Positions 8,234 to 13,521 of a DNA stretch of 64,000 bases are shown here, in pieces; the first letter of the stretch is position 1, and each line of letters starts with the position of its first letter. The notes under the pieces are model-generated. The model made no database searches, was not told the origin of the DNA, and saw only the letters and a list, made by a program, of their open reading frames with translations. Source of the DNA: a virus (lineage: Duplodnaviria; Heunggongvirae; Uroviricota; Caudoviricetes). The stretch is from IMG/VR virus record IMGVR_UViG_2541047873_000001. One strand, 5' to 3'. The position numbers were made by a program, and so were the translations under genes.

Positions 8234-8265
8234 TAACTTTAAATAATTGGCATTATTTAAAGTTA
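8234..8265. other. rox-type site-specific recombination site
   Basis: taactttaaataat-tggc-attatttaaagtta: perfect 14 bp inverted arms around a 4 bp spacer, about 150 bp upstream of the recombinase gene; matches my recollection of the Dre target rox (reverse complement). Confidence 0.8.
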
Positions 8266-8417
8266 GGCTATAATCTCCAGTAAACAGGCAGTATTGACAA
8301 GGATGAAAAATCATGCCTCGAATCAAAGGCTTGAATTTTGAAAATTAACTTATAACTACCCTGTCAGTTTTCTATTTTTCACGTAGCGTTATCTGTATAT
8401 AGAGGTTTAATAGTTTC

Positions 8418-9446
8418 ATGGGTGAACTAGTTATCTCCGGCGGTTCTGGTGGTTTTCTGCGCGATATTGGCACCGAATACCAGGAAGCTGCAAAAAACTT
8501 TATGCAGTTCATGAACGACCAGGGAGCTTATGCCCCAAATACACTTCGTGATCTCCGTCTGGTGTTTCATTCCTGGGCGCGGTGGTGTAACTCGCGCCAG
8601 CGCCCCTGGTTCCCGATTACGCCGGAAATGGCCCGCGAGTATCTTCTCCAGTTGCATGAGGCCGATCTGGCTTCGACCACCATTGATAAGCACTATGCCA
8701 TGCTTAACATGCTGCTTTCGCAATGTGGCCTCCCGCCGCTGTCGGACGATAAAAGTGTGTCTCTGGCCATGCGGCGCATCCGGCGCGAAGCGGCAACGGA
8801 AAAAGGCGAGCGAACAGGCCAGGCTATACCGTTGCGGTGGGATGATCTGAAATTGCTCGACGTGTTGCTGTCCCGTTCCGAGCGGCTGGTGGACCTGCGC
8901 AATCGGGCGTTTCTCTTCGTGGCATACAATACCCTGATGCGTATGTCAGAAATCTCGCGCATCCGCGTCGGAGATCTGGACCAAACAGGTGACACTGTAA
9001 CGCTGCATATTTCACACACGAAGACCATCACGACCGCCGCAGGACTTGATAAGGTGCTTTCTCGTTACACTACCGCCGTACTGAACGACTGGCTGGAGGT
9101 GTCCGGACTTCGAGAACATCCGGACGCGGTGCTATTCCCGCCAATACACCGCAGTAATAAGGCCAGAATCACGACAACGCCCCTTACTGCACCTGCAATG
9201 GAGAAAATATTCAGCGATGCCTGGGGGTTGCTGAACAAACGAGATGCCACGCCGAACAAGGGAAGATACCGGACGTGGACAGGCCATAGTGCGCGTGTTG
9301 GTGCGGCAATTGATATGGCTGAGAAACAGGTGTCAATGGTCGAGATCATGCAGGAAGGCACATGGAAAAAGCCCGAAACACTTATGCGATATTTGCGCCG
9401 TAGCGGGGCATCCGTTGGTGCAAATAGTCGCCTGATGGATTCATAA
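8418..9446 (+). CDS. dre: Cre-family tyrosine recombinase (Dre-like)
   Basis: 342 aa; colinear with P1 Cre by eye (WFP, LAFxxxAYNTLxRxxEIxRIRVxD, GHSARVGAAxDMA, C-terminal Tyr region). Confidence 0.9.
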   Translation: MGELVISGGSGGFLRDIGTEYQEAAKNFMQFMNDQGAYAPNTLRDLRLVFHSWARWCNSRQRPWFPITPEMAREYLLQLHEADLASTTIDKHYAMLNMLLSQCGLPPLSDDKSVSLAMRRIRREAATEKGERTGQAIPLRWDDLKLLDVLLSRSERLVDLRNRAFLFVAYNTLMRMSEISRIRVGDLDQTGDTVTLHISHTKTITTAAGLDKVLSRYTTAVLNDWLEVSGLREHPDAVLFPPIHRSNKARITTTPLTAPAMEKIFSDAWGLLNKRDATPNKGRYRTWTGHSARVGAAIDMAEKQVSMVEIMQEGTWKKPETLMRYLRRSGASVGANSRLMDS

Positions 9447-9863: not shown

Positions 9864-10348
9864 AAACTTACTACCCATCCCTGAACTGCTATCCAACCAC
9901 TAATCCTGAGCTGTCAGGGAAACTTCTGTCCCTCCTGGCTGATAGTCCTGATGAATGGCATAAGCCTGGTGATATCAACACACAGTTCCCTGAGTACGGG
10001 TGTATCCGCACCAGAAATGAGCTGAAGAACCTCATTGCTCACGGTTTTGTCCGTCACCGTAGCGGGAAAGGCTATCAGTTGGCCATCCCACAAGGAGAGG
10101 CAAGAGAACTCTTTGGCTATCGAGAAAGCCAGACGCAAGCGCGGGTGATCGCAGAAATTATCCGTAATGGCAGCGTCTATGCCCGCAAATTCTGGCTGTC
10201 TGGCGGTGGTGATGCATCACAGTTCTTGCGTGCTGTGCGATCGCTGGAGGAACAAGGTGTTATCGAGAATACCTGCGTCTCCGTTCCGACCGCTCCGCAT
10301 ATCAAACGCCGGATTTATACATTTACCCGGAGAGCTAAAAAGCAATGA
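9860..10348 (+). CDS. hypothetical protein, possible winged-helix DNA-binding
   Basis: 162 aa; basic segments (HGFVRHRSGKGYQL) suggest a winged helix; start overlaps upstream stop. Confidence 0.45.
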   Translation: MKTYYPSLNCYPTTNPELSGKLLSLLADSPDEWHKPGDINTQFPEYGCIRTRNELKNLIAHGFVRHRSGKGYQLAIPQGEARELFGYRESQTQARVIAEIIRNGSVYARKFWLSGGGDASQFLRAVRSLEEQGVIENTCVSVPTAPHIKRRIYTFTRRAKKQ

Positions 10349-10839
10349 TTAACGTGAAAGTGAAACGCCTTCATCCGGCGGCAAAACTCCCCGTTTACGC
10401 CACCGCCGGATCGGCGGCGATGGATTTTGTTGCTGTTGAAATAACGCCGGGTATCGATAGCAACGGCGCTATTTCCTCAAGCTGGTGGGTGCATACCGGC
10501 CTCGCTATGGCGATCCCTCCTGGCTGGTGTCTGAAACTTTATCCTCGTTCCGGATTGGGCTGCAAAAAGCATACGCGCCTGGCTAACTGCGTAGGAATTA
10601 TCGACTCCGATTATCGCGGTGAAATCAAAGCAAAACTGATTACAGATCCCGGTGGTGAAGGCGTTTGCCTCAAGCCAGGAATGGCGGTCATGCAAGGCAT
10701 TTTTGAGCGTGTTGAACCGGTATCGCTGGTAGAAGTTGATGAACTCGATGAAACAGAGCGAGGTGCTGGTGGCTTTGGTAGCACATCGGAAGACCGCATT
10801 GAAATCAAGCGTACACCGCTTCAGTACGCAAAGTTTTAA
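10345..10839 (+). CDS. dut: dUTP diphosphatase
   Basis: 164 aa; dUTPase motifs PxYATxGSAAxD, RSGLG, GxIDSDYRGE, C-terminal GxGGFGSTS. Confidence 0.9.
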   Translation: MINVKVKRLHPAAKLPVYATAGSAAMDFVAVEITPGIDSNGAISSSWWVHTGLAMAIPPGWCLKLYPRSGLGCKKHTRLANCVGIIDSDYRGEIKAKLITDPGGEGVCLKPGMAVMQGIFERVEPVSLVEVDELDETERGAGGFGSTSEDRIEIKRTPLQYAKF

Positions 10840-10853
10840 GTAGAGGAAAGGCT

Positions 10854-11504
10854 ATGAATAACATGCCAACGAAAGAGCTTTTTAAGTTCCTTCCCAAATA
10901 CAAAGCTCACAAAAACGTTAGTGCATCGAAAATCAAAAATGTTGTTATTTTCGGCGTAACTGATGCCCCACTTTGGGGCTGCATCGAACTCGTTGAACCA
11001 AAAGGGGCAACAGTTTGTGTTGACGCAATGTTTTTACAAAAACACCGACCAAAAACTGGCGGGTATCTGATCGTTTATGAAAACGGTTATCTGTTCTATG
11101 CCCCGGAGAAACCATTTGAGGAATGCTATGGCCTGGTTAACGACGCCTCCAAAAATGGAACCACGGTCATCATTACGGATGACAACGGCGTGATGATTAA
11201 TCTTACTGGGAGCGTAACTATTTCTGCTGGTGGCATCACCACCCAGCAAGAAGAAATCGACCTTGAAGCAGCCGACTTCTCTGATGCGCTAATGTGGTTG
11301 AAGGAAGGCAAGAAAGTTGCCCGACGCGAGTGGAAAGGCGAAAAGCAATTCTGCTGGTTAGTTCTCGCTGGAAGCGTCAATTTACACGGCATTCACGTTC
11401 CTTATGGTGACCATTTTGTATTGAAAGATGCACAAAATATGGACAGCGTTTGGTTGCCGTCTGTGGATGATTTACTGGCCTGTGACTGGTTTGTTGTGGA
11501 GTGA
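10854..11504 (+). CDS. DUF2829 (Tad2-like) domain protein
   Basis: 216 aa; C-terminal about 75 aa FSDALMWLKEGKKVARREWKGEKQF ... WLPSVDDLLACDWFVVE fits the DUF2829 pattern; N-terminal about 130 aa unknown. Confidence 0.6.
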   Translation: MNNMPTKELFKFLPKYKAHKNVSASKIKNVVIFGVTDAPLWGCIELVEPKGATVCVDAMFLQKHRPKTGGYLIVYENGYLFYAPEKPFEECYGLVNDASKNGTTVIITDDNGVMINLTGSVTISAGGITTQQEEIDLEAADFSDALMWLKEGKKVARREWKGEKQFCWLVLAGSVNLHGIHVPYGDHFVLKDAQNMDSVWLPSVDDLLACDWFVVE

Positions 11505-11510
11505 TTTAAC

Positions 11511-12308
11511 GTGGAAAATACCAAGAACATTCAATATCGCCTGCGTAACGGCCTGCTGGTGGATGTAAACGATGATATGTCCCTGCCCTTTGCCACCATT
11601 GAGCGAACCATCCTTACATACCTGGGTTTAGACGAAGAGTTAGATAGTGAGAATGGCATTGCTATCTGGCGTGACGGAAAAACGGGAGTCAGACGTTTTA
11701 TTACGGCAAGAGGCATTCAGTGCACACAGGAAGAATTGTTTGAACTGGCGCAGTCTTATGGATGCATCGCGTTAGATCCCCTGCATGACCCAGCCATAGC
11801 GCAACAACTCATTCGAGAGCTGTCGCTTTCGGTCACGCCAATAATCTTCCGCCAGGGAACCTTAACCGGCACATGGCGTGTAGAACGCATCTCTAAATAT
11901 CAGCCATATAATATCCATTTGAACGGCACTATTACTGGTGTGGATCAACCAGTAGCAGGTGAAAACAAAGACCTGGAACTTGCAGTAATGATGGCTGCTT
12001 GTCGCGTGCTTGGCCTGGGCAAGCAGATGTTTATCCATTTCCCAAACGGCGCGGAAGGCGAAGTAGAGCTGATTTCCTGCGACTTTTCCTTAACCTGGAT
12101 GCTTGATGAATTCCTGGACAAAACAGTATTCCGTGCTGAAGAACTGGATATGTATGTCACCTCAAGTATTCCTAATGACGTGAAAGTTGAGGCCATCGCT
12201 ACAGCCAGGGCGAAATGCCGTGCGGCGATTGCAGAACAGGCCAAAGAAGAACAGTCCGATGAAGTCGCGGCAGATGTGGAAGCAGAGGATGCTGATGCTG
12301 ACGCCTAA
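11511..12308 (+). CDS. hypothetical protein with acidic C-terminus
   Basis: 265 aa from GTG start; C-terminal acidic tail EAEDADADA; hairpin terminator follows at about 12358-12390. Confidence 0.5.
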   Translation: MENTKNIQYRLRNGLLVDVNDDMSLPFATIERTILTYLGLDEELDSENGIAIWRDGKTGVRRFITARGIQCTQEELFELAQSYGCIALDPLHDPAIAQQLIRELSLSVTPIIFRQGTLTGTWRVERISKYQPYNIHLNGTITGVDQPVAGENKDLELAVMMAACRVLGLGKQMFIHFPNGAEGEVELISCDFSLTWMLDEFLDKTVFRAEELDMYVTSSIPNDVKVEAIATARAKCRAAIAEQAKEEQSDEVAADVEAEDADADA

Positions 12309-12388
12309 AAGCAAGAAATTAGCTGGCTGACAGCAGAAAAAATCATTGAGTGATAGTAGGAAGCCCGCTTGGTTGAGCGGGCTTCTTT

Positions 12389-13098: not shown

Positions 13099-13521
13099 TT
13101 AAGCAGAATAAGTGGTTGGAATTCTGAGCAGTAATCCAATCTTGGCTATGTGCTCATATGGCAGCTCTCCGGTTTTACCATCATGTATCGAGGCTATCAG
13201 ATTCAATTCATGCGCCGCTTTACGAATTTCAGTTTCTGATGGAACAAGGCGAAAACCGATGGGTAACATTTTGATATAGAAAGGTAATAGTTCGTACTTC
13301 ACCCGTAACTGTGCTGCCGCATCTTTCAAATCATGGATGATTTCTTGTTTTAAGTCAGAGCGGGGATTCGATAGCTTTGCTTGGTTAGACAATAACAGAT
13401 GCGATATTTCCCCCAACTGTTCCTTGAATGAAATGTAAGACTCAACCCCCTTGATGATGAGTCGACCTAGGACAAAAACGCTTACTCCAGTGACAACAGT
13501 GACAAAAGCAGACGAACTCAT
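13099..13521 (-). CDS. membrane-anchored hypothetical protein (low-GC moron)
   Basis: 140 aa; N-terminal transmembrane helix (AFVTVVTGVSVFVLGRLII); lower GC than flanks; sits between phd-doc and humD. Confidence 0.55.
   Translation of the reverse strand: MSSSAFVTVVTGVSVFVLGRLIIKGVESYISFKEQLGEISHLLLSNQAKLSNPRSDLKQEIIHDLKDAAAQLRVKYELLPFYIKMLPIGFRLVPSETEIRKAAHELNLIASIHDGKTGELPYEHIAKIGLLLRIPTTYSA

Follow-up and report, generated by a model that had tools for sequence, protein, structure and literature searches.

A predicted Tad2-type immune-signal sponge joined to a Dec-like OB-fold module in a D6-like phage-plasmid

The Tad2 family of viral immune-signal sponges was founded by SPO1 Tad2 (gp34.65; PDB 8SME/8SMF/8SMG). 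All Tad2 proteins solved to date are tetramers, in which two V-shaped dimers interlock along helix alpha1 and the pockets lie at protomer interfaces; in SPO1 Tad2 the interface within the V-shaped dimer is made in part by a second helix, alpha2. ModTad2, from a Myroides odoratus prophage (PDB 9EIB, 8V3E), sequesters histidine-ADP-ribose (His-ADPR), the signal in type II Thoeris, and binds cyclic UMP (cUMP) at a second site, and other Tad2 proteins bind N7-cyclic ADP-ribose (N7-cADPR) or cyclic dinucleotides. Tad2 domains also occur with another small phage domain attached through a linker, as in the Acb4-Tad2 protein of Pasteurella phage Pm86 and in Tad2-PF21825 (Sequestin) proteins (Tal et al. 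2025). Here we describe a gene in the 64,000-nucleotide (nt) stretch of viral DNA of IMG/VR record IMGVR_UViG_2541047873_000001, referred to in what follows as the window, whose 216-amino-acid (aa) product carries a Tad2-like domain behind a second domain that matches no established sponge family. We consider it probable that this protein is a cytoplasmic sponge of the Tad2 type that oligomerizes and sequesters a nucleotide signal of the TIR (Toll/interleukin-1 receptor)/Thoeris kind, and that its N-terminal OB (oligonucleotide/oligosaccharide-binding) module is separable.

The initial annotation of the gene had assigned the C-terminal ~75 aa to DUF2829, the fold of Tad2, and had placed the gene next to dut and downstream of a recombinase in one operon. 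A search with the hidden Markov model (HMM) of Pfam family PF11195 (Tad2-like, formerly DUF2829) matches aa 141-215 over the full profile (positions 2-73 of 73) with 66.7 bits, relative to a gathering cutoff of 25 bits, and E=2.8e-18, while dut and a cre-like gene are found in the same tight string (Table 1). With a full-length Pfam match, an intact open reading frame (ORF) and these neighbors the earlier description is correct, far beyond chance. A phmmer search of PDB sequences returns ModTad2 (9eib, E=7.5e-11) and SPO1 Tad2 (8sme, E=5e-6), together with weak matches to HgmTad2 and AcrIIA7. A single-chain AlphaFold2 model calculated from 42 homologues shows two domains with confidence, at aa 5-96 and at aa 140-216, whose block values in the predicted local distance difference test (pLDDT) are 81-91 except for the loop at aa 31-40 (67); the linker between them is poorly defined. 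Foldseek comparison of the aa 137-216 model places it on solved Tad2 structures, ModTad2 (9eib/8v3e), SPO1 Tad2 (8smf), HgmTad2 and SptTad2, with 8kbj also among the matches (E from 1.5e-7 to 5e-5, TM scores of 0.6-0.89 across all of these); the matches to 9eib/8v3e have E~1.5e-7, a TM score to the target of 0.76-0.89 and 40% identity. The predicted fold is of the Tad2 type, an N-terminal helix alpha1, then an antiparallel beta-sheet and a short C-terminal helix. By sequence and model, aa 137-216 thus appear to be a new member of a known family and hence likely an immune-signal sponge.

Residue mapping bears on the pocket itself. According to Yirmiya et al. the SPO1 Tad2 residues that contact 1''-3' glyco-cyclic ADP-ribose (gcADPR) or ordered waters are W25, N26, I63, T65, D67, H71, W73, S76, T78 and D79, and in the phmmer alignment these correspond to W160, K161, L190, D192, Q194, S198, W200, S203, D205 and D206, respectively; together with G162 they make up the pocket-equivalent set. 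The core of the pocket (W25, W73, S76 and D79 in SPO1 Tad2) is kept as W160, W200, S203 and D206, of which W160, W200 and D206 are invariant in all 42 family members and S203, like P202, is found in 41. Six residues of alpha1, the tetramerization helix that interlocks the two dimers, are also invariant in the family, so that both the pocket core and this helix are conserved. ModTad2 and Tad2_68, the closest protein that has been tested (Hadary et al. 2025, Table S2), have the same W...W-x-P-S-x-x-D core at ~39-41% identity. Unlike these single-domain proteins of 87-89 aa, the window protein has 136 additional N-terminal residues and an insertion loop that is shorter by ~8 residues.

The family in P1-like elements is a mosaic, with two stalk types, several OB variants and three types of insertion loop, of 16, 25 and 33 residues. 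Pocket residues co-vary with the loop: short-loop alleles, which include that of the window and account for 11 of the 42 family representatives, have K161, D192, S198 and D205, while medium- and long-loop alleles have N, N, V and G at these positions. Mosaic alleles with co-varying pocket residues are as expected for a gene in an arms race, and the loop-linked change of four Tad2 residues suggests, at the sequence level, a switch in specificity rather than decay. The window domain shares 41% identity with Tad2_68, and the medium-loop sister allele of P1-like plasmids 67%; Tad2_68 differs from the window protein in carrying N, N, V, G rather than K, D, S, D at the four pocket-equivalent positions. 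Hadary et al. (Table S2) score Tad2_68 as y/y/y, a positive result, against type II Thoeris and as n/N-A/y against type I; for the other five systems the validation column is n or N/A, and plate transformation failed for the E. coli Pycsar construct. We confirmed the order of the columns from what the paper's text says of Tad2_70 and Tad2_71. Tad2_68 was located by reading the table, a search of the supplement for the window protein's own motifs having given no match. Since Tad2_68 and ModTad2 both act on type II Thoeris, the best guess for the target of the family is a Thoeris-type signal; the ligand of the window allele cannot be read from its sequence. The initial annotation had named cyclic ADP-ribose as the ligand, and here the sponge class stands but the wording is too narrow, given that the family binds His-ADPR, N7-cADPR, cyclic dinucleotides and cUMP.

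The N-terminal ~130 aa had been described as a fused domain of unknown nature. A fused extra domain it is, but not an unknown one, as ~135 aa match the decoration protein Dec of phage L. The match found by phmmer is weak (6e3c, E=0.02-0.034, aa 56-126 against Dec 53-122), Foldseek comparison of the N-terminal model with Dec gives E=2.7e-3, and a profile built from 146 OB-family representatives reaches Dec with E=4e-6; no match was obtained for this part of the protein against Pfam or solved sponge structures. The order of elements, beta0, beta1, beta2, beta3, alphaOB, beta4, beta5, alpha2 and a beta-rich tail, is that described for Dec, and the model has the Dec-type OB fold with the beta0 and alpha2 additions. 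The alignment extends into the Dec spike, a C-terminal three-stranded beta-helix that trimerizes, with INLTGSVT in the stalk opposite TITLTGAVT in Dec, but the segment has a pLDDT of ~50 and is not conserved in distant two-domain homologues, where the stalk is replaced by unrelated or very short (4-residue) linkers. On the basis of sequence and model, therefore, the N-terminal part resembles Dec, with a predicted OB fold at aa 5-96 and a beta-rich stalk at aa 97-136.

Conservation within the OB domain is bipartite, with residues 13-27 (LPxYKCHKxVxAxKI) and 63-92 (KHxPxxGGYxVxYxDGYxSxSPAxAFExGY) nearly invariant and residues 28-62 hypervariable. The nearly invariant positions of the family include H19, K20, K26, K63, H64, Y71, Y75, D77, Y79, S81, S83, E89 and Y92. 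Dec retains the structural core (P66, G69, G70, Y71, G78, F88, E89 and Y92) but, unlike the family, lacks H19, K20, K26, H64, Y75, D77, Y79, S83 and P84. The main residues through which Dec contacts the capsid at site 1, K30 and Y49, correspond to V31 and C55 within the hypervariable segment, which is weak evidence since the capsid would differ in any case. The window allele itself departs from the OB family at N77, F81, A83 and C91. Dec (PDB 6E3C) is moreover a 134-aa virion protein, whereas the window protein carries a Tad2 domain and is encoded outside the structural module.

In an exhaustive search of aa 1-100 against 1.84 billion representative proteins (E<=1e-3) the OB family comprises 1802 clusters; a word-indexed homologue search with the same residues returned close fragments only. 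Of the best 145 representatives, 53 stand alone with a length of ~85-100 aa, 64 have a C-terminal and 24 an N-terminal extension, 4 contain two OB copies and 1 has extensions at both ends. By BLAST hardly any of the 87 extension segments are related to one another, and the Pfam domains that recur among these 145 proteins, with scores above the Pfam cutoffs, are known immune-signal sponge families: Acb4 (PF13876) in 4 proteins and in both domain orders, Tad2 in 4, Sequestin (PF21825) in 3, including three-domain OB+Tad2+Sequestin proteins, and the Acb2/Tad1 hairpin (PF24729) in 2 (63 bits for P0236, the cutoff being 27). Further Pfam partners are DUF4406, DUF5662 and the RyR domain; PHROG partners are MazG-like pyrophosphatases, a nucleoside 2-deoxyribosyltransferase and a hydrolase, and an OB-MazG fusion from a Vibrio phage is present in BFVD. 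Of the OB proteins at 46 diverse IMG/VR loci, sampled independently, 5 have Tad2, Acb4 or Sequestin as a fusion partner. Scanning the 4 kb around stand-alone OB genes with local HMMs for these three families turned up no sponge gene of its own; the only matches were fusions. The 149 genes lying within two positions of OB genes on diverse viral contigs include 1 major head protein and 1 portal, the rest being terminases, rII genes, spanins, replication genes and genes of unknown function, and in a lambdoid coliphage a stand-alone OB gene occupies a moron position after the lysis genes.

In Ralstonia phage GP4 a 91-aa OB-only homologue (L003, 3986-4261) lies between portal/scaffold-like and major capsid genes, beside a csrA-like gene. 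We considered whether it might be the GP4 cement protein and rejected this, since that role belongs to gp1, an Ig-like protein of 157 aa, and the 91-aa ORF of the OB homologue is separate from it. Gp96 of Pseudomonas phage Dolphis is annotated as 'capsid decoration protein' yet is found amid small genes of unknown function.

Because the OB domain is attached to four sponge families it may be an unrecognized anti-immunity module. We suggest, tentatively and with rather less conviction than for the sponge assignment of the Tad2 domain, that the Dec-like OB domain (PHROG 11049/872/9467, at least 1800 clusters) is a widespread counter-defense module, either an eighth sponge family or a common adaptor. 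As an adaptor it would be attached by phages to sponges (Tad2, Acb4, Sequestin, Acb2/Tad1) and to nucleotide-processing enzymes, one possibility being that its hypervariable face targets such partners to the capsid or to the sensor complex that makes immune signals; phage L Dec would then be a structural offshoot of the OB family and not its prototype. The sponge families of an April 2026 paper are Tad1, Tad2, Acb2, Acb4, Sequestin and Lockin, plus TadIV-1, none of which has an OB fold. That the OB domain might be Lockin or another new sponge family was also considered and is unlikely, Tal et al. having found no Lockin in complete INPHARED phage genomes, where the OB domain is common. A literature search combining 'OB-fold', 'Thoeris' and 'sponge' found no paper, and in the literature searched we did not find it said that a Dec-like OB domain forms a very large family fused to four known sponge families.

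In the mechanism that we favor the gene product would act in the cytoplasm as an anti-defense protein encoded by a D6-like phage-plasmid of the P1 type. The C-terminal Tad2 domain would assemble into an oligomer, presumably a tetramer, that sequesters a nucleotide-derived immune signal from a TIR/Thoeris-type system of the host, so that the effector would never be switched on, and the N-terminal Dec-like OB domain with its stalk would be a separable accessory module that might serve as a scaffold, a targeting device or a second binding site. The initial annotation had proposed an anti-defense sponge with an added module; sequence, predicted fold, pocket core and context support the first of these as a Tad2-family sponge, and the module is now refined to a Dec-like OB domain plus stalk. 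Several observations nevertheless weigh against this mechanism. The domain shares with SPO1 Tad2 the fold and the W25, W73, S76 and D79 contacts, but identity is ~35% and five ligand- or water-contact positions have changed (N26K, T65D, D67Q, H71S and T78D), four of which also differ from Tad2_68. The beta2-beta3 insertion is of the shortest type in the P1-like set and, unlike SPO1 Tad2, the model has no alpha2 helix. These five positions vary between Tad2 clades with different ligands, so that the changes concern specificity and not membership; together with the missing alpha2 they mean that neither ligand nor oligomer is to be inferred for this particular allele. In addition, a trimer-forming stalk of the Dec type would clash with the symmetry of a Tad2 tetramer, and a Tad2 fold is compatible with a different demonstrated activity, the binding of tracrRNA by AcrIIA7. 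Finally, fusions of a Dec domain to Tad2 were taken out of the screen of Hadary et al. 2025, where Tad2 homologues with 'PF21825 or PDB 6E3C' domains were removed. From this removal it follows that the architecture had been noticed before, and the fusion class is thus already on record in the literature, just as the gene itself is already annotated as DUF2829 in RefSeq.

It is possible, though we regard it as doubtful, that the protein is instead a double anti-defense protein, in which the OB domain is itself ligand-binding, as a new sponge or as a domain that binds or processes signals, and two signals are neutralized as by Acb4-Tad2 or Tad2-Sequestin. The size of the OB family and its many stand-alone members of 85-100 aa fit such a role, as do the fusions to four sponge families in either order and to MazG-like pyrophosphatases, DUF4406 and the deoxyribosyltransferase PHROG, the 5 sponge fusions in 46 viral loci and the existence of three-domain proteins. 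The same fusion logic led Tal et al. 2025 to Sequestin, and like their fusion partners the OB domain occurs both alone and beside other sponge families, with some homologues adding a C-terminal Sequestin. The nearly invariant basic and aromatic residues, most of them absent from Dec, would suit a nucleotide pocket, and the neighbors of OB genes are not head genes. But there is no known sponge with an OB fold and, unlike in the fusions of Tal et al., the OB partner matches no established sponge family; the oligomers of its partners differ (dimer, tetramer, hexamer), which an adaptor fits equally well; the window allele has lost nearly invariant residues at the four positions given above; and the hypervariable aa 28-62 look more like a protein-recognition surface.

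The remaining readings are all less likely than that of a Tad2-type sponge. A capsid decoration protein of the Dec type, with OB domain and trimeric stalk on the head and DUF2829 at the tip as an extracellular adhesin or ligand-binding knob, is improbable. It would explain why nothing but Dec matches the N-terminal part significantly by structure or profile, why the similarity runs on into the spike segment with the same order of secondary structure, and where the GP4 homologue is located. The gene is, however, in an accessory or early string and not in a head module, head and portal genes are all but missing near OB genes, and K30 and Y49 of Dec fall at non-conserved positions. The Dec OB domain cannot bind capsids without its spike, yet most family members are OB-only, and distant two-domain homologues have other linkers, some of only 4 residues, in place of a stalk. 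Phage D6 has no OB domain at all, the GP4 homologue is not the cement protein found on the GP4 capsid, and the Tad2 pocket requires a tetramer. The P1 virion proteome shows no decoration protein, but P1 itself has no copy of the Tad2-like fusion gene.

We think it equally improbable that the window carries a degenerate or neutral passenger allele, with domains still recognizable and the selected function lost. Substitutions at conserved positions of both domains (N77, F81, A83 and C91 in OB; K161, D192, S198 and D205 in Tad2), the shortened Tad2 insertion, the lack of the gene in P1 and an apparently interrupted copy in phage RCS47 next to an insertion sequence would all agree with decay. Against it, the ORF is intact and has a good ribosome-binding site, the short-loop type recurs in about a quarter of the representatives (11/42), DNA at least 95% identical to the gene over at least part of its length is present in 51 complete E. 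coli records, and the four Tad2 substitutions go together with one another and with loop type.

Least probable is a role for DUF2829 in RNA binding, or else as an anti-CRISPR or a regulator, in the manner of AcrIIA7, with the N-terminal module gating it: AcrIIA7 is a Tad2-fold tetramer that binds tracrRNA, the AcrIIA7 chains match weakly at E=0.005-0.012 and PHROG 643 ('transcriptional regulator') at E=1.7e-6, and pdAcrIIA7 (PDB 9KZR) likewise has an N-terminal add-on to a Tad2-type core, a head domain that modulates and indeed blocks activity, but this head is a 48-residue helical pair and not an OB fold, and the sequence similarity is limited to alpha1-beta1 and far weaker than to ModTad2 or SPO1 Tad2. 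E. coli and Salmonella have type I CRISPR systems and are not known to carry type II-A. HgmTad2 did not antagonize SpyCas9, according to Li et al.

The gene belongs to an accessory operon of a D6-like phage-plasmid and not to a head module. The region from the cre-like to the isaA-like gene has 82% DNA identity to phage D6, a P1-type phage-plasmid, and 99.6% identity to a 94-kb non-mobilizable E. coli plasmid in which RefSeq labels the gene 'DUF2829 domain-containing protein'. The protein is identical to one already recorded (P0001) and 100% identical to the RefSeq 'DUF2829 domain-containing protein' of plasmid NZ_CP104667.1. Among 5426 complete E. coli genomes 210 contain a DNA match to the gene; the matching places number 216, and plasmids account for 209 of them. 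The alignments of these genomic matches break at ~nt 297 and at ~nt 511, counted within the gene, and so suggest recombination joints. Phage D6 encodes in orf114 (L001, 2594-3034) a 146-aa protein with the stalk and the Tad2 half only, 74% identical to aa 100-216, and the OB domain is thus optional within the D6-type group. Tad2 domains have further partners: in some D6-like plasmids, on E. coli contigs of up to 88 kb, dut and Tad2 form a single 241-aa ORF (P0062; dUTPase aa 14-144, Tad2 aa 157-240) with no OB domain, and in a 306-aa protein (P0024) a phage tail-fiber repeat (PF03406) is N-terminal to Tad2. In SJ46-type punaviruses a Tad2-like gene lies between ssb and isaA, beside dar/ddr anti-restriction genes, and the ssb operon of P1 has a C1-controlled promoter. 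The order Tad2-like gene, then isaA-like gene is common to D6, SJ46 and Ro157c2YLVW, the upstream neighbor being dut or ssb in D6-type and SJ46-type phages. The two-domain homologue of Klebsiella phage SopranoGao belongs to an operon that begins beside a divergent gene pair annotated as regulators.

A few of these relatives deserve separate mention. The RCS47 copy (FO818745.1, 15495-15950) matches aa 1-152 only, is annotated 'part 1' and adjoins the inverted repeat of an insertion sequence (IS), by which it appears to be interrupted. The idea that P1 isaA and isaB are remnants of a Tad2-like gene split by IS1 was rejected, since P1 IsaA is homologous, at 47% identity, to the 265-aa ORF that lies downstream, and there is no resemblance between either P1 protein and the 216-aa protein. 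In several plasmid matches (H52, H53, H55-H60) the 2.9-kb query spans ~3.95 kb and there is one more hypothetical gene, indicating an additional insertion of ~1 kb at some point of the string that runs from the 114-aa ORF to the isaA-like gene.

Table 1. Coordinates in the window of the Tad2-like gene, its parts and the surrounding gene string
Feature	Position	Strand	Basis or remark
Promoter-like site TTGGCA-16-TATAAT, 5' of cre-like gene	8247..8274	+	consensus scan, 11/12 match
Cre/Dre-like tyrosine recombinase, heads gene string	8418..9446	+	Pfam Phage_integrase; D6 region annotated 'similar to P1 cre'
Two conserved small ORFs, 114 aa and 162 aa	9519..10348	+	PHROG 1968 and 6669; between recombinase and dut
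dut (dUTPase)	10345..10839	+	Pfam PF00692, E=2.3e-13; PHROG 135
Shine-Dalgarno-like GAGGAAAGG	10843..10851	+	direct sequence reading; 2 nt between site and ATG
Coding sequence of 216-aa two-domain protein	10854..11504	+	ORF list and sequence; ATG start; stop codon 11502-11504
N-terminal OB-fold domain, aa 1-96, PHROG 11049/872 family, Dec-like	10854..11141	+	
Beta-rich linker/stalk, aa 97-136	11142..11261	+	low model confidence, pLDDT 47-51
C-terminal Tad2-like (DUF2829) domain, aa 137-216	11262..11501	+	Pfam, Foldseek, residue mapping
IsaA-like gene, 265 aa, GTG start	11511..12308	+	47% identity to P1 IsaA; PHROG 2326
Terminator-like hairpin, 3' of isaA-like gene	12367..12382	+	consensus scan

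The gene string is tightly packed, with 14 nt between the end of dut and the start of the Tad2-like gene, 6 nt between the latter and the isaA-like gene, and overlapping stop and start codons in the 114-aa and 162-aa ORFs, for which a Pfam scan gave no match. Such neighbors (cre-like, dut, isaA-like) are in keeping with an accessory or early gene. The promoter-like site upstream of the recombinase is a candidate promoter for the string by its sequence; in the window as a whole the promoter and terminator consensus scans gave site totals not above those of shuffled sequences. A search of the window for P1 C1 operators with up to 3 mismatches found none, so that the window offers no site by which expression of the string, which may be early, would be tied to C1 in its timing. 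The isaA-like ORF has an acidic C-terminal tail and matches PHROG 2326 alone, Pfam and PDB searches giving no match; it may be another accessory or counter-defense gene. The G+C fraction over the OB half of the Tad2-like gene (window 10800-11100) is 0.40-0.45, compared with ~0.52 in dut and the upstream ORFs, which fits a separately acquired module. Homologues of phd/doc and humD come after the string. Downstream of phd/doc the window has, on the minus strand at 13099-13521, a 140-aa ORF followed by humD, whereas the nearest plasmid relative has at that place a complete type I restriction-modification system, hsdM, hsdS and hsdR (L009, 12674-18754), indicating a variable cargo site.

If the Tad2 domain is active, phage-plasmids of the P1/D6 type carry a ready-made inhibitor of TIR-type immune signaling, and their alleles, of at least three types with different pocket residues, are natural material for working out what determines Tad2 specificity. 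Until now the OB domain has counted as a 'decoration protein' domain and has been filtered from sponge screens. It could be an immune-signal binder of a new class, or else a general device for the targeting or assembly of viral sponges, and in that event the 'capsid decoration protein' labels on some members of the OB family would need correcting.

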